Source: an uncultured Candidatus Bathyarchaeia archaeon (lineage in GTDB: Archaea; Thermoproteota; Bathyarchaeia; Hecatellales; Hecatellaceae). From it: a stretch of DNA of 64,000 bases. The notes under the pieces were generated by a model that searched no databases, had not been told where the DNA came from, and saw only the letters and a program-made list of their open reading frames with translations. Of the stretch, positions 49,334 to 59,487 are shown piece by piece; position 1 is the first letter of the stretch; every line of letters starts with the position of its first letter. The DNA lies in the NCBI GenBank assembly GCA_964484995.1, contig CAZAHF010000001.1:672-64671 (forward strand), in the 5' to 3' direction. The translations under genes were made by a program, and so were the position numbers.

Positions 49334-50380
49334 CTAAACATATCTTGAGGATTTTAAAGATATATCCTGTTTAATAGTTAATAAATCTCTCAGAATAGCA
49401 CTTGCAGTCTCTATTCCACCAGCACCTCTACCAATAACCGTTTCCTCACCAGCATATTGAGAAACAAAAGTTACCGCATTCAAAACTCCGCTAACACATA
49501 GAGGGTGATCTCTAGGAATTAGCTGTGGGGAAACCTGAAGTTCCCCTTCTTTAGCTGAAGCAATAAGCTTAATTTCACAACCTTTTTCTAGGGCTTTCCT
49601 AACATCTTCTAGGGTTATTCTTCTTATTCCCTCAACTTTTACATCTTTTAAAACAGCTCTTAAACCCAGAATCCAGTTAGCTAAAATTACAAGTTTACAT
49701 GCTGAATCATAACCGTCAACATCCATAGATGGATCTGCTTCTGCATAACCAGCTTTTTGAGCTTCAACTAAAGCCTCCTCAAAAGACATATTTTCATAAG
49801 TCATTCTTGTTAAAATATAGTTTGTTGTTCCATTAAGAATTCCTCTAAAAGAAAGAATTTTATCTCCTAAAAGACATTTTTTAGCAAAATCCAAGATGGG
49901 TGTTCCGCCACCAACACAACCACTAAACCTAAGTAAAACATTATTGTATTCCGCTAACTCCATAAGAGCTGGCATAGCTAAAGCTAAAGGCCCTTTATTA
50001 GTTGTAACAACATGTTTCCCCGTTCTTAGAGCTGTTTTAATGTGGGTTAATGCAGGTTCACCGTCAACTATATTTGTTGGTGTAGCCTCAACAACAACCT
50101 CCGCATCTGTTTCCTCAATAATTTTTGCCGCATTAACATTTCTAACACCGTTTTCCTCATCCATACAGACAGAACCTTTCTCCCTTTTTACATCTAAAAC
50201 TTTTTTAAGGTTTAATCCTTTAAGGTTTAAAGAAGCACCTCCACTATCAATAACAGCAATAATCTTAGGGTGAATTTTAAAACTCTCAATCAACTCTTTC
50301 TCTCTTACCAGCAAAAGCTTAGCAAAACTCTGACCAACAACACCAAAACCAACCAAGATTAACCGCATTTTAAACACCAA
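49334..50380 (-). CDS. hom: Homoserine dehydrogenase
   Basis: NAD-binding N-terminus (RLILVGFGVVGQ), HSD catalytic region and a C-terminal ACT-like segment. Confidence 0.85.
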   Translation of the reverse strand: MVFKMRLILVGFGVVGQSFAKLLLVREKELIESFKIHPKIIAVIDSGGASLNLKGLNLKKVLDVKREKGSVCMDEENGVRNVNAAKIIEETDAEVVVEATPTNIVDGEPALTHIKTALRTGKHVVTTNKGPLALAMPALMELAEYNNVLLRFSGCVGGGTPILDFAKKCLLGDKILSFRGILNGTTNYILTRMTYENMSFEEALVEAQKAGYAEADPSMDVDGYDSACKLVILANWILGLRAVLKDVKVEGIRRITLEDVRKALEKGCEIKLIASAKEGELQVSPQLIPRDHPLCVSGVLNAVTFVSQYAGEETVIGRGAGGIETASAILRDLLTIKQDISLKSSRYV

Positions 50381-51593
50381 CTATCCTTTTTATAACATCT
50401 AAGTCTGCTTCAACTTCAACAGGCTTAACAAAAAATTTAACTGGTGTATCCGGATCTTTTAGCCCATGACCAGTAGTAACACAAACAATAACCTCATCTT
50501 TATCGATTTCACCCATCTCTAAAAATTTTTTTAAGCCAGCAATTGAGGAGGCGCTTGCAGGTTCAACAAACAAACCTTCACTTCTAGCTAAAACCTTTTG
50601 AGCTTCAAGAATCTCTTTATCTGAAACAGTTTCAGCTTTCCCACCTGACTCTTTTATTGCACGTATAGCCTTCTTCCAGTTTACAGGAGCACCTATTCTT
50701 ATAGCTGTAGCTACAGTTTCAGGTTCAAGAACAGGCTCAATAGTGTCTTTTCCGGCTTTAACAGCTTTTGCTATTGGAGCTGCACCTTCAGCTTGAACAC
50801 CCATCATTTTAGGAAGAGAATTTATAAGTTCAAGCTCTTTAAACTCTTTAAATCCCTTCCATATAGCGCTAATGTTTCCCGCGTTTCCAACAGGAACAAT
50901 AACTCTGTCAGGTGGTCTACCATTTAACTGGTCTACAACCTCATAAGCCAGAGTTTTTTGTCCTTCAAGCCTATAAGGGTTAACAGAGTTAAGCATGTAA
51001 ACTTCACCACAATCGAGAGAAAGCCTAATAATAATGTTTAAAGCATCATCAAAATTTCCATGAATCTGAACCACCTCAGCCCCATAAACAATAGCCTGAG
51101 CAAGTTTCCCGTAAGCAACCTTTCCAGAAGGAATAACAACTAAACATCGAATACCAGCCTTCGCCGCATAGGCTGCTAAAGAAGCTGAAGTATTACCTGT
51201 CGAAGCGCAAACAACAGTTTTAACTCCATACTCTAAAGCTTTTGTTACACCAACAGTCATTCCCCTATCTTTAAAAGAGCCTGTCGGGTTTTCCCCCTCA
51301 TTTTTAACGTAAAGATTCCTTAATCCAAGTTTTTCAGCTAAACGGTTACATCTATAAAGCTTGGTTCCTCCCTCATTTAGTGAAACAATTTTTGACTCGT
51401 CAAGGATAGGTAAAAACTCTTTATATCTCCAAACTGATAGAGGCCTTTTTTCCCAGTCAGACTTTTCTATTTTGAATTTTAACTTTTCAAAATCGTATTT
51501 TACCTCAAGTAGATCTCCACATTTTTTACAGTAATAAACTACTTCCTCTGGGCTGCTTTTTTCATGACAACCTATACATTGAAGATAGAACAT
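50370..51593 (-). CDS. thrC: Threonine synthase
   Basis: PLP fold-type II with a Lys motif (GSFKDRG) and an N-terminal Cys-rich extension. It overlaps hom by 11 nt. Confidence 0.85.
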   Translation of the reverse strand: MFYLQCIGCHEKSSPEEVVYYCKKCGDLLEVKYDFEKLKFKIEKSDWEKRPLSVWRYKEFLPILDESKIVSLNEGGTKLYRCNRLAEKLGLRNLYVKNEGENPTGSFKDRGMTVGVTKALEYGVKTVVCASTGNTSASLAAYAAKAGIRCLVVIPSGKVAYGKLAQAIVYGAEVVQIHGNFDDALNIIIRLSLDCGEVYMLNSVNPYRLEGQKTLAYEVVDQLNGRPPDRVIVPVGNAGNISAIWKGFKEFKELELINSLPKMMGVQAEGAAPIAKAVKAGKDTIEPVLEPETVATAIRIGAPVNWKKAIRAIKESGGKAETVSDKEILEAQKVLARSEGLFVEPASASSIAGLKKFLEMGEIDKDEVIVCVTTGHGLKDPDTPVKFFVKPVEVEADLDVIKRIVGV

Positions 51594-52702: not shown

Positions 52703-53998
52703 ATGAAGAAGGACCGTTCAACACGTAGAGTGGTTGGTGGTAGAAGAAGGTCTCGTTTAAGAAAAGTTAAACATTTTTTGTGGGTTATTGGCCCAGGAAT
52801 TATAGCTGGTGCTGCTGGAAATGATGCTGGAAGTATTGGAAGTTTAGCTTCTGGTGGCGCACTTTATGGCTGCTCTATACTTTGGGCTTTACTTCTTTCT
52901 CTCATATTCTCATATTTTATCCAAGATATGTGTGTTCGGATTGGTGTGGTCTCAAGGAAAGGTTTAATTGAACATGCAAGAGAAAGGTATGGATTTAAGG
53001 TTGGATTTATTTTTTTACTAGTCTTCTTAGCTGTAAATTTTGCTACAGTTATCGCTGGGATTGCTGGTATGGCTGCAAGCTTAGAGCTTTTAGCGTGGGT
53101 AGCTGGCCTCTATTTTCCTTACACAATTCTTGTACCAATCTTAACATTTTGTGTTTGGCTTTTTCTTTTAAAAGAGGGATACGGTCCTATTGAACGTGTT
53201 TTTTCTATTGTAAGTTTAACAATGTTTGTTTATGTTGTTGTAGCTTTTATGGCTAATCCTTCTCCTGAAGAAATTATTCGAGGTTCTCTTTGGATAACAG
53301 AAGAACTAACTTTCGACTATTTGGTTTATGTTTCAGCAATCATTGGTGCAACAATTTCTCCTTATATGCAGTTTTACCTGGTTTCAGCTATTGTTGATAA
53401 AAGAGTTAGGATTAGAGATCTTCTTTCAGAAAGAGTAGGATCCATTCTTGGAATAACGATTTCAGGTATTCAAGCTTTTGCTATTGTTATTGTTGCAGCC
53501 TATGTTCTTTTTCCGAGAGGAATAATTGTTGAAACAGCTAAAGATGTTGCTTTATCTCTTGTACCTTTTCTTGGGTTTTCAGCATTTACTCTTTTTGCTA
53601 TAGGGTTTTTCTCCTCCTCTCTTAATGGGACGGGTGTAATAATTAGTAGTTCAGGCTACTCTTTTAGCGAGTTTTTTGGTGTTGAAAGAGGTTTAAGTAA
53701 AAGAGTTCGTGAAGCTTTTACCTTTTATCTTATGTTTACTATCTGTTTTATGATTGGTTATGGTGCTCTAATCTTAGGGATAACACCAATTCAAGCTATG
53801 GTTTACTCTATGGTTATATCGTTTATCCTAAGCCCCATGGTTGTGTATCTAATTTTAAGGGTTGCAAATGATAGTGAGGTTATGGGAAAACATGCAAACA
53901 ATTTTGTTATGAAAATTGTTGGATGGGCTATTTTTGTAATTCTTTTATTGTTGGACTTTATACTTTTAATGGATGTGGTTATTACGTATATGCCGTGA
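52703..53998 (+). CDS. mntH: NRAMP-family divalent metal (Mn2+/Fe2+) transporter
   Basis: GPGIIAGAAGNDAGSIGSLASGGALYGCSILWALL matches the NRAMP TM1 signature. There are 11-12 TM helices. Confidence 0.85.
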   Translation: MKKDRSTRRVVGGRRRSRLRKVKHFLWVIGPGIIAGAAGNDAGSIGSLASGGALYGCSILWALLLSLIFSYFIQDMCVRIGVVSRKGLIEHARERYGFKVGFIFLLVFLAVNFATVIAGIAGMAASLELLAWVAGLYFPYTILVPILTFCVWLFLLKEGYGPIERVFSIVSLTMFVYVVVAFMANPSPEEIIRGSLWITEELTFDYLVYVSAIIGATISPYMQFYLVSAIVDKRVRIRDLLSERVGSILGITISGIQAFAIVIVAAYVLFPRGIIVETAKDVALSLVPFLGFSAFTLFAIGFFSSSLNGTGVIISSSGYSFSEFFGVERGLSKRVREAFTFYLMFTICFMIGYGALILGITPIQAMVYSMVISFILSPMVVYLILRVANDSEVMGKHANNFVMKIVGWAIFVILLLLDFILLMDVVITYMP

Positions 53999-54064
53999 AC
54001 CATAAAAGTTAATTGTGAATTTTTAACAGTATTTTCAAGTGTAATCTAAAGGTCTTAAGGGTGA

Positions 54065-55345
54065 ATAGCCATATCTAAAACACCAACCTACATAAAAAAA
54101 ATTGTTAAGGAACACCATAAATGGAGAAGTAGCTGTATAAACCTTGTTGCAAGTGAAAATGTTACAAGCCCAGCTGTAAGGGAAGTTTTAGCCTCAGATT
54201 TTACTCATAGATATGCTGAAGGTGAACCTTACAATAGGCTTTATGGTGGAACAAAATATTTTGATGAGGTTGAAGCTTTTGCCATAAATCTGGCTAAAAA
54301 AATCTTTAAAGCTGAACATGTAAACCTCAAACCAATTTCAGGCTGCCAATCAAATCTAGCAGCTCTATATGCTTTAACAAATATTGGAGATACTGTTATG
54401 GCCTTATCCTTAGTTACTGGTGGGCATATTAGTTATATGGAGTTTGGTGGAGCTGGTGTTAGAGGATTAAAAGTTGAAAGTTTACCCTTTAACCCGGAAG
54501 AAATGAATGTTGACCTAGACGCTACAATAAGAAAGATTAGAGAGGTTAAACCAACTCTAATTTTTCTAGGTGGAAGCGTAATCCTATTTCCAGTTCCTAT
54601 CAAAGAAATAAAAGAGGCTTCAGAAGAAGCTGGAAGCAGTCTTGTTTATGACGCCTCTCATGTTTTAGGTTTAATAGCAGGCAAACAGTTCCAAGATCCT
54701 ATAGGTGAGGGGGTAGATGTTCTTACAAGCAGTACCCATAAAACTTTTCCAGGTCCTCAGGGTGGAATAATTTGCTGTAAAAAAAGTTTAGCTGAAAAAA
54801 TTGATAAGGCTGTTTTTCCTGGGCTTGTAAGCAACCATCATCTTCACCATATAGCAGCATTAGCTATAGCTCTCTTAGAAATGGAAAAGTTTGGGGTTGA
54901 GTATGCTAAACAAACAATAAAAAACGCTAAAGCTTTAGCTGAAAACCTATACAATCAAGGTTTTGATGTTATTTGTGCAGATAAAGGTTTTACAGAAAGC
55001 CATCAGGTTTTAGTTGATGTCTCAAAGTTTGGTGGAGGAGCTAAAACAGCAGACCTACTAGAAAAAGCAAACATTATTTGTAACAAGAATCTTATACCTA
55101 AGGATAATTTAAAAAATGCTGAAAACCCAAGCGGTATAAGATTAGGAACAGCAGAAATTACTAGACTTGGACTTAAAGAAAAAGACATGGAAAATGTTGC
55201 AACCTATATTAGAAAAGCTATTATTGACAGAGTCGATCCATTAAAGGTGGCTAAGGAAGTTAAAAAGTTTATGAAAAAGTTTTCAACTATAAAATACTGT
55301 TTTCAAAAAAGAAGTCAAGCTTACAAATATTTTGATTTCTACTAA
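54065..55345 (+). CDS. glyA: Serine hydroxymethyltransferase; 5' end unresolved (no canonical start codon in frame)
   Basis: SHMT motifs (INLVASENVTSPAVRE, RYAEGEPYNRLYGG, SSTHKTFPGPQGG). Conserved N-terminal sequence extends ~110 codons upstream of the first ATG (54398), up to an in-frame TGA at 54062-54064. Confidence 0.8.
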   Translation: MAISKTPTYIKKIVKEHHKWRSSCINLVASENVTSPAVREVLASDFTHRYAEGEPYNRLYGGTKYFDEVEAFAINLAKKIFKAEHVNLKPISGCQSNLAALYALTNIGDTVMALSLVTGGHISYMEFGGAGVRGLKVESLPFNPEEMNVDLDATIRKIREVKPTLIFLGGSVILFPVPIKEIKEASEEAGSSLVYDASHVLGLIAGKQFQDPIGEGVDVLTSSTHKTFPGPQGGIICCKKSLAEKIDKAVFPGLVSNHHLHHIAALAIALLEMEKFGVEYAKQTIKNAKALAENLYNQGFDVICADKGFTESHQVLVDVSKFGGGAKTADLLEKANIICNKNLIPKDNLKNAENPSGIRLGTAEITRLGLKEKDMENVATYIRKAIIDRVDPLKVAKEVKKFMKKFSTIKYCFQKRSQAYKYFDFY

Positions 55346-57168: not shown

Positions 57169-58269
57169 GTGATGAAGCCGAGAGAAATCTTAGAGAATTT
57201 TAAGCCTTACGAGTGGGAACTCTCAGTTATAGATGTGGCAAAAAAGTTTGGTTTAAACCCGGATAAAATTTTAAGGTTTGACACAAACACGATGCCTTTC
57301 CAACCAATAAGGTTACTTGAAAAGCTTAACCAGAAACTTTTAAATCTTAAGGTTAATGAATACCCTGAAACTTCCTATTTGGAGTTAAGAGAGGCTTTAG
57401 CAAGATATCTTAGGAGAAATGTGGATGAAATAACTGTTACAGCTGGATGTGATGAAGCCTTAGATATTCTTGTAAAAGTTTTTATAGACCCTAATACAAA
57501 GGTTCTGGTTTCAACTCCAACCTATGCCATGTATAGAGTTGTTGTTGAAGCCATGGGTGGAAAAATTGTTAATATCCAAAGAAAACCTGATTTTTCAGAT
57601 GATGTAGAGAACATTCTTAGAACTGTTGACAATAAAACAAAACTTATTTTCCTTTGCAATCCTAACAATCCAACAGCAAACCCAATATCCGAAAAAACAG
57701 TCACCCAGTTACTTGATGAAACAGATTGTGCTGTAGTTGTAGATGAGTCTTACGTAGAGTTTTATGGAAAATCTTTTGTAAATCTAATAGACAAGTATGA
57801 GAATCTCATAATTCTTAGAACTTTTTCTAAAGCTTTTTCTTTAGCTGGTGCTAGGGTTGGCTACATGGTTGCAAACAAAAAAACTATAAACCTTTTAAAT
57901 CTTATGCGTCCTCCAAATAGTTTAACAGTAATTTCTTTAGCTTTAGCAAAAATTGCCCTGGAAAACTTAGACTGGATTAGAGAAAATGTTAAAAAAATTG
58001 TTGAAGAGAGAGAAAGATTAGCAAAGGTTTTAGGTGAAATAGACGGGGTTTATGTTTATCCATCTGTAACAAACTTTCTCCTAGTAAAATTTGTTAAAGG
58101 GAATGTTAACAAAATTCATCAAGAACTTTTGAAAAGTGGGATTATAACAAGAAATGTTAGTGATCAGCCTATGCTGGAGAACTGCTTAAGAATTACTGTA
58201 AGAAAACCAGAAGAAAACAGGGTTTTAATTGAAAACCTTAAAAAAATTCTCTCAAGAATAGGAGGTTAA
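57169..58269 (+). CDS. hisC: Histidinol-phosphate aminotransferase (class II PLP aminotransferase)
   Basis: HisC-like length and motifs (PLP-Lys in FSKAFSLAGARVGY; N-terminal YPE). Confidence 0.8.
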   Translation: MMKPREILENFKPYEWELSVIDVAKKFGLNPDKILRFDTNTMPFQPIRLLEKLNQKLLNLKVNEYPETSYLELREALARYLRRNVDEITVTAGCDEALDILVKVFIDPNTKVLVSTPTYAMYRVVVEAMGGKIVNIQRKPDFSDDVENILRTVDNKTKLIFLCNPNNPTANPISEKTVTQLLDETDCAVVVDESYVEFYGKSFVNLIDKYENLIILRTFSKAFSLAGARVGYMVANKKTINLLNLMRPPNSLTVISLALAKIALENLDWIRENVKKIVEERERLAKVLGEIDGVYVYPSVTNFLLVKFVKGNVNKIHQELLKSGIITRNVSDQPMLENCLRITVRKPEENRVLIENLKKILSRIGG

Positions 58270-58560: not shown

Positions 58561-59487
58561 ATGGGGAATATTATAGTTACAAGTATTGGTAGAGACAGAC
58601 CTGGCATAGTTGCTGGGATATCAAATATACTTTATCGGCATAATGCAAACATCCTTAAAACAAGAGCCTCAATTCTAGGCGGACTTTTTGTTATGGTTAT
58701 GGTTGTTGATATATCAAAAGTAAACATTAAACTTGAAGACTTAATTTCAAAATTAAAGGAGAAAGGTGTAGAACTTGGTTCGGGAATTTCTGTTGAGGAT
58801 GAGAAAACCTATCGTAAAAAGAAAAAGCTTGTAGCATTTGATTTAGATGGAACTTTGATTCAGATGGAAACTTTAGATGAACTTGCAAAAGCTGCTGGTG
58901 TTTATGAGGAAGTAAAAAAGATTACAAAGATGGCCATGGAAGGAAAAATGAGCTTTAAGGAAGCATTAGCTAGAAGGGTTAAGCTTCTAAAAAATCTACC
59001 AGTAGAAGAGGTGGAAAAGTTAAAGAGGAGAATAGAGTTTACACCTGGTGTTCAAGATCTTGTTAAGGAACTTAAAAAAGCTGGTTTTGTTACAGCAATT
59101 ATTACTGGTGGATTTGATGTTTTTGCTAAACATGTTGCTGAAAAACTTGGAATAGAGTATGTTTACGCTAACAGACTGATTGTTAGGAAGGGTGTTCTAA
59201 CTGGAGAGTTTAAGGGCGAAATTGTTTCTGCTCAATCGAAACTTAAAGCTTTAACAGAGATAGCTAAAAAGGAAGGTATAAGCCTTAGTGAATGTGTTGC
59301 TGTGGGGGATGGGGCAAACGATGTTTTTATTCTAAAAAGTTCAGGTTTAGGTATTGGGTATAAACCAAAAACAGTTGTTAAACGTCATGCTAAAGCCTTA
59401 ATCAACAGTGAGGATTTAAGGACAATTATGGCTTTTATTGGAGGAGGCCAAATAAGAAAAGATGTAATCAAAAAACTTAAAGAGTAG
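58561..59487 (+). CDS. serB: Phosphoserine phosphatase (HAD superfamily) with N-terminal ACT domain
   Basis: ACT region (RDRPGIVAGISNIL), then HAD motif I (LVAFDLDGTLI), motif II/III and motif IV (VGDGANDVF). Confidence 0.8.
   Translation: MGNIIVTSIGRDRPGIVAGISNILYRHNANILKTRASILGGLFVMVMVVDISKVNIKLEDLISKLKEKGVELGSGISVEDEKTYRKKKKLVAFDLDGTLIQMETLDELAKAAGVYEEVKKITKMAMEGKMSFKEALARRVKLLKNLPVEEVEKLKRRIEFTPGVQDLVKELKKAGFVTAIITGGFDVFAKHVAEKLGIEYVYANRLIVRKGVLTGEFKGEIVSAQSKLKALTEIAKKEGISLSECVAVGDGANDVFILKSSGLGIGYKPKTVVKRHAKALINSEDLRTIMAFIGGGQIRKDVIKKLKE

Follow-up and report, generated by a model that had tools for sequence, protein, structure and literature searches.

A conserved AUA codon as the probable translation start of a serine hydroxymethyltransferase gene without AUG, GUG or UUG in a clade of Bathyarchaeia

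Near-cognate starts in described systems and the glyA locus

The accepted start codons in Archaea are AUG, GUG and UUG, and NCBI translation table 11 permits ATA, ATT and ATC starts as well. The bacterial genes infC and pcnB start at AUU, and IF3, the product of infC, regulates infC itself. Initiation at AUA, AUC, AUU and CUG in E. coli reaches 1-2% of the level of AUG (10.1101/063800). When a Shine-Dalgarno (SD) sequence has positioned it, an archaeal pre-initiation complex finds the start codon by local scanning (PMC6237735), and in the P. abyssi aEF1A model mRNA the GGUGA motif lies at -10 to -6 (PMC6237735). The archaeal factor aIF1 selects against start codons that are not canonical (PMC6237735; PMC8211752), and AUA should therefore be inefficient as the start of a central metabolic enzyme. 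Ribosome profiling of Haloferax volcanii showed that about 30% of the putative alternative initiation sites were near-cognate, and these were set aside by the authors (PMC7261190). A conserved AUA start of an archaeal gene was not found as a described case in a limited literature search.

We analyzed the serine hydroxymethyltransferase (SHMT) gene glyA in a 64,000-nucleotide stretch of DNA, referred to here as the window, from an uncultured Candidatus Bathyarchaeia archaeon (contig CAZAHF010000001.1). Like infC and pcnB, glyA is a housekeeping gene without AUG, GUG or UUG in which an AUN codon lies behind an SD sequence, and the arrangement is conserved in orthologs. However, glyA is an archaeal gene, served by aIF1, aIF1A and aIF2, and its putative start codon is AUA and not AUU; in addition, infC is autoregulated by IF3, whereas no autoregulatory logic is known for glyA. 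As at the Haloferax volcanii sites (PMC7261190), archaeal initiation would take place one base off AUG, but those are putative alternative or extra sites, while in glyA the near-cognate codon would be the sole start, conserved, of an essential-type enzyme. The M. jannaschii GlyA protein (4uqv, 4bhd) aligned from residue 4 to 429 with query residues 4-426, and the difference concerned the start codon only. The PDB protein begins three residues before the aligned region, at the position equivalent to 54065. The closest annotated comparison is RLG90754.1 of Candidatus Hecatellales archaeon B76_G16 (QMXD01000067, the contig L004/L010 below), an ortholog with 79% amino acid identity. It is recorded as MAISKTPAY..., 426 aa, and its initial Met is translated from an ATA, the 54065-equivalent codon; spacing and conservation favour the 54071-equivalent start instead. 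Near-cognate initiation is a known phenomenon for which there is little documentation in Archaea; glyA is a further case, and one NCBI record already implies an AUA start.

The open frame, its product and its conservation

Direct reading and translation showed that the SHMT frame was open from 54065 to 55345 on the forward strand (426 codons, stop at 55343-55345). The frame start reads TTAAGGGTGA followed by ATA GCC ATA TCT AAA ACA CCA, with the TGA at 54062-54064 in frame just before it, and the translation opens with IAISKTPTYIKKIVKEHHKWRSSCINLVASEN and runs to the stop. The first in-frame ATG, GTG or TTG was the ATG at 54398-54400, the internal Met112, and both the ORF listing and a codon walk showed none in 54065-54397. 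The absence of a canonical codon before 54398, which had been claimed in a sequence-only reading of this DNA, was thus borne out, and an in-frame canonical codon within 54065-54150, the sign that the region had been mis-framed, was looked for and was absent. The in-frame near-cognate codons were ATA at 54065, 54071, 54092, 54137 and 54284, ATT at 54101, 54335 and 54383, CTG at 54290 and ATC at 54302. The remaining two frames were stop-rich between 54000 and 54400 and held no usable ORF.

Of the window's stop-to-stop ORFs with 150 codons or more, glyA alone among the real genes had its first canonical start preceded by more than 28 codons. A run of 111 codons without ATG, GTG or TTG has a probability of about 0.04 per given stretch at 35% GC, and such runs were also found inside other ORFs. 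The oddity of glyA is not the size of the run; it is that the run spans a conserved protein N-terminus. The other genes of the window were also screened for an SD-placed ATH or CTG codon before the first canonical start, and glyA alone stood out.

The identity of the product was examined with Pfam and solved structures. The 426-aa translation matched the Pfam SHMT family (PF00464) with 269 bits against a cut-off of 27, covering profile positions 7-399 of 399, while the 315-aa product that automatic gene callers start at ATG 54398 scored 166 bits and covered positions 114-399 only, so that the N-terminal part contributed about 103 bits. The region of profile positions 1-113 presumably holds the PLP-phosphate loop and active-site Tyr and Glu residues. 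Query residues 4-426 aligned with M. jannaschii SHMT (4uqv_A, 4bhd_A) with an E value of about 2e-153, and the closest named database relatives were SHMTs of Bathyarchaeia and Hecatellales. By its full-size profile match and its alignment with a solved structure, the predicted product is an archaeal-type SHMT.

The neighbours of glyA are an Nramp transporter upstream and a thiolase with its OB-fold partner, an aminotransferase and an ACT-HAD protein downstream. A PALP-family enzyme lies upstream of glyA at 50373-51593 on the reverse strand; on the forward strand downstream are a class I/II aminotransferase at 57169-58266 and an ACT and HAD protein resembling phosphoserine phosphatase at 58561-59484. 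These amino acid metabolism neighbours suggest a serine/glycine cluster. In the downstream thiolase, GTG 55431 is the first canonical start and falls within the SD sequence AGAGGTGA, and TTG 55440 is properly spaced; the thiolase is called with 395, 392 or 390 aa in relatives.

The startless 111 codons were present in seven distinct sequence variants on ten contigs, which came from up to seven assemblies and fell into three lineages at 81-99.7% nucleotide identity. In the group of L005 (JGI 3300038381), L090 (JGI 3300014911) and L172 (ENA ERZ27227320), the gene-wide nucleotide identity to the window was 99.7, 99.4 and 99.0%. It was 86.4% for L001 (Logan SRR26701722) and 80.7-80.8% for L002 (ENA ERZ27227320), L003 (ENA ERZ1742239), L004 (JGI 3300014911, also GenBank QMXD01000067; the same contig as L010 and L091) and L173 (ENA ERZ27248328). 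The samples behind JGI 3300014911, JGI 3300038381 and SRR26701722 come from the Guaymas Basin. In all fetched clade members the frame opened right after the TGA of GGTGA, and the order Nramp-glyA-thiolase was kept. A protein search returned three clusters called with 315 aa, P0003, P0007 and P0019, with 99%, 88% and 77% identity, respectively. Comparison with glyA of close relatives, the check proposed with the sequence-only reading, therefore gave relatives that are startless too and carry the same ATA. Two other candidates for a startless glyA were rejected as gene-caller choices, because P0025 (L170) shows a TTG in frame where the N-terminus is expected, and in P0096 (L171) an ATG lies upstream. 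The best explanation of the alignments would be that the canonical start of glyA was lost in one clade of Hecatellales-like Bathyarchaeia.

We determined dN/dS by the Nei-Gojobori method for codons 1-111 and for codons 112-426. The value for codons 1-111 was 0.08 (dS 0.65) between the window and L001, 0.21 (dS 0.39) between the window and L002, and 0.21 (dS 0.53) between L001 and L002, and the corresponding values for codons 112-426 were 0.11, 0.14 and 0.19. Purifying selection acts on the N-terminal codons. Since dN/dS of codons 1-111 was like that of the rest, the N-terminus has been translated in the glyA frame for as long as the three lineages have been diverging. Relaxed selection, as in a pseudogene, was not seen, and the frame was intact in all seven variants. 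The best reading of these data is that glyA would be an intact and functional gene in which the start codon alone is unusual. A 5' frameshift or truncation, which had been offered as an explanation of the missing start, was refuted by the purifying selection together with the Pfam match from profile position 7 and the M. jannaschii alignment from residue 4.

The putative initiation codon and the competing readings

The motif GGTGA at 54060-54064 (+), whose TGA closes the frame upstream, was invariant in all clade members and is SD-like; it is complementary to the 3' end of archaeal 16S rRNA. GGTGA is frequent inside coding regions as Gly-Glu codon pairs, and the motif alone is therefore unspecific. 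The distance from motif to codon was compared among genes. In window genes with a clear SD sequence, GGTG lay at -9 to -12 from the start: at -11 for TTG 44973 (GGTGAatagtt before the codon), -10 for TTG 45679 (AGGTGtagctt), -10 for TTG 55440 (AGGTGAattgt), -11 for TTG 56621 (GGTGAttaagt), -9 for ATG 61334 (GGAGGTGtaact), -11 for TTG 62397, and, on the reverse strand, -11 for TTG 15597 and -12 for TTG 9046. In genes on the related contigs it lay at -10 to -13. Among the 11 genes of the window whose GGTG was clear and lay at -9 to -12, about 8 had TTG as the SD-supported start, which suggests that the lineage of the window relies on the SD sequence and is relaxed about the start codon. A tRNA scan of the window detected no tRNAs.

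At the glyA frame start, ATA 54071 (54071-54073, +) follows GGTGA after a spacer of 6 nt, which puts GGTG at -11, and was invariant in the three lineages. The near-cognate ATA 54071 is thus found at the SD distance typical of the genome, and both codon and SD sequence were conserved in orthologs, although Ile is conserved at this position in outgroups with canonical starts as well, and ATA invariance is therefore weak evidence alone. The proposed untranslated spacer between SD sequence and start, ATAGCC at 54065-54070 (+), varied at 2 of its 6 positions between lineages: the start-region alignment (A1) showed GTAACC in L001, where the window and the L002 group have ATAGCC. Both changes are at first codon positions and would be non-synonymous, while pN was otherwise 0.05.

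By this spacing and conservation, translation probably starts at the near-cognate AUA 54071, placed by the SD sequence, a reading we hold with moderate confidence; that initiation would occur at AUA at either 54071 or 54065 appears clearly likelier. The sequence-only reading had proposed a non-canonical AUA or AUU initiator behind GGTGA. The AUA part of that proposal was supported and could be narrowed to ATA 54071, with ATA 54065 the lesser candidate, but ATT 54101 fell away, as it has no SD sequence; it is ATA in relatives. GGTGA itself proved credible as an SD sequence, but it abuts 54065 and has the correct spacing for 54071 only. The proposed coding sequence of glyA would run from 54071 to 55345 (+), with 424 codons and the stop at 55343-55345, in agreement with the Pfam SHMT match, the 4uqv/4bhd alignment and dN/dS. 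In the proposed mechanism, the 16S 3' end would pair with GGUGA (54060-54064) and so place the small ribosomal subunit, and six nucleotides downstream of the motif Met-tRNAi would pair with AUA, whose third position would be left as a C:A mismatch. The protein would then read MSKTPTYIKK..., 424 aa, and its translation rate would be lower than from AUG, by analogy with AUA in E. coli (1-2% of AUG). We infer initiation at AUA, Met as the first residue and the position of the transcript start.

The leader in this mechanism would be short and unstructured, with the promoter probably in the conserved 66-nt intergenic region. Within this Nramp-glyA spacer, the 43-nt block AACCATAAAAGTTAATTGTGAATTTTTAACAGTATTTTCAAGT at 53998-54040 (+) was close to 100% identical in the window, L001 and L002, unlike the synonymous sites in glyA, which differed by 30-54% among the three lineages. 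The block contains the TATA-like element TTTTTAAC at 54020-54027, which is overlapped by an inverted repeat (GTTAA 54008-54012 and TTAAC 54023-54027), and it probably serves as a promoter that includes a site for a regulator. As the sole conserved TATA-like element, 54020-54027 predicts a transcription start at about 54048-54050 and a leader of 20-23 nt including the SD sequence. On a leaderless archaeal mRNA, transcription would begin at the start codon or a few nt from it, and the TATA box would be located about 26 nt upstream. The leader was A-rich, and the 5' region was not more structured than shuffled sequence (z = +1.26). No conserved hairpin was found near the start, where the consensus fold reached only -4.9 kcal/mol, and Rfam gave no match in the whole window at gathering thresholds and none at E <= 1 for 53950-54200.

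The outgroups bear on the choice between the two ATA codons. L006 and L092 (P0001, 74% identity) read GGTGA ATA ATG ATT TCA, with the ATG at the GCC position of the window and GGTG at -8, and L007, L008 and L009 (P0002, 69% identity) read AGGTGG TTG ACG ATT TCC, in which the TTG corresponds to ATA 54065 and abuts the SD sequence. Both have ATT (Ile) at the -11 position. The start site differs between L006 and L007, and the position of the canonical start is therefore not fixed in this SHMT group. In these nearest outgroups (L007 2995-3009; L006 2992-3006) the annotated start is unusually near the SD sequence, at 0 nt and 3 nt, respectively. The true glyA start in the L006 and L007 genomes may also be uncertain, and in a wider version of the proposal both may initiate at the ATT lying at -11, and an AUH codon at this distance may be in wider use.

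A start at ATA 54065-54067, the first codon after the TGA, giving MAISKTP..., 426 aa, is the alternative that survives best. Its counterparts by homology are the TTG start of L007 and residue 1 of M. jannaschii SHMT, and NCBI starts RLG90754.1 at the equivalent codon. However, in L001 this codon is GTA, with two mismatches to the initiator anticodon, and in the window it abuts GGTGA, which leaves GGTG at -5, closer than the -9 to -13 of other genes. Every difference between lineages in codons 1 and 2 of the frame, moreover, is non-synonymous, the pattern expected of a spacer. We regard a start at 54065 as unlikely.

An RNA-level change, such as A-to-I editing by which AUA would become AUI and be read as AUG, or some other mode of initiation, would account for efficient expression of a startless gene, and nothing direct speaks for it. 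We know of no mRNA A-to-I editing system in Archaea, and the absence of a conserved structure around the ATA codon argues against such a change, which appears very improbable.

Slightly less probable again is that the N-terminus is not made, either because glyA is a decaying pseudogene or because only the 315-aa product is translated from ATG 54398. Automatic gene callers chose this ATG, and a GGAG lies 8 nt upstream of it. However, codons 1-111 kept a dN/dS of 0.08-0.21 over dS of about 0.4-0.65, equal to that of the remainder, their frame was unbroken in the seven sequence variants, and the 315-aa product would be without positions 1-113 of the SHMT profile.

Entry from another frame was considered through GTG 54061, which lies inside GGTGA, out of frame, and opens a 5-codon ORF, MNSHI*, at 54061-54078 (+); a programmed +1 frameshift within its first five codons would lead into glyA. 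The GTG was invariant in all lineages, and its ORF ends at TAA 54076 in the window and L001, so that a stop-stimulated shift is conceivable. However, no codon of GTG-AAT-AGC-CAT-ATC can re-pair in +1 and there is no slippery site, the stop is CAA in L002 and L173, and no conserved SD sequence precedes the GTG. The ORF reads MNSHI* in the window, MSNHT* in L001 and 15 codons in L002, and all lineage differences are non-synonymous in its frame, which thus shows no coding constraint. A prfB-like +1 frameshift would need, besides an upstream ORF with a start such as the GTG, a site where the tRNA can re-pair in +1 and a conserved stop or rare codon; the re-pairing site is absent here and the stop varies, and we rejected the route as scarcely credible. 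As further feeders for frameshift or slippage, TTG 54013, GTG 54015 and GTG 54040 were rejected because a stop follows within 0-3 codons, which leaves GTG 54061 as the sole upstream start to reach glyA, and slippage at the A8 run at 54094-54101 was rejected because the run is broken in L002 and L173 (AAGAAAAA) and no started ORF leads into it.

A sequencing or assembly error, by which a true ATG was read as ATA, had been put forward in the sequence-only reading. Nothing speaks for it beyond its prior plausibility in one metagenome-assembled genome, and it is refuted for practical purposes by the identical ATA and the absent start on ten contigs from JGI, ENA and Logan assemblies in three diverged lineages.

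Consequences for annotation and for archaeal initiation

At least seven public entries have 315 aa (P0003, P0007, P0019, P0121, P0122, P0123 and P0125), among them that of the window's own 72,381-nt contig, and only P0124, which is RLG90754.1, is full size. The 315-aa database entries of the clade are mis-annotated, with 111 residues cut off. These entries are without over a quarter of the enzyme, and any metabolic reconstruction or family alignment built on them is therefore wrong. The full-size NCBI entry RLG90754.1 probably starts two codons too early.

In three lineages whose synonymous sites have diverged by some 30-55%, a central gene of one-carbon metabolism would have retained an AUA start. 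Either SD-led initiation in Archaea tolerates AUA sufficiently for an enzyme of housekeeping type, or selection has favoured a low or conditional translation of SHMT, and both outcomes bear on the start-codon stringency of the archaeal aIF1/aIF2 system. We tentatively consider, as a somewhat improbable reading, that selection has kept the AUA start in the Hecatellales-like clade because it throttles SHMT translation or acts as a sensor for it, and that it is no tolerated defect; it is a possibility that such a throttle might sense the level of aIF1 or the fidelity of initiation, compared with the control of the infC AUU by IF3. If the throttle reading were true, glyA would be the first conserved AUA-initiated core metabolic gene described in Archaea, and its start would be the first start-codon-based regulatory device described in that domain.
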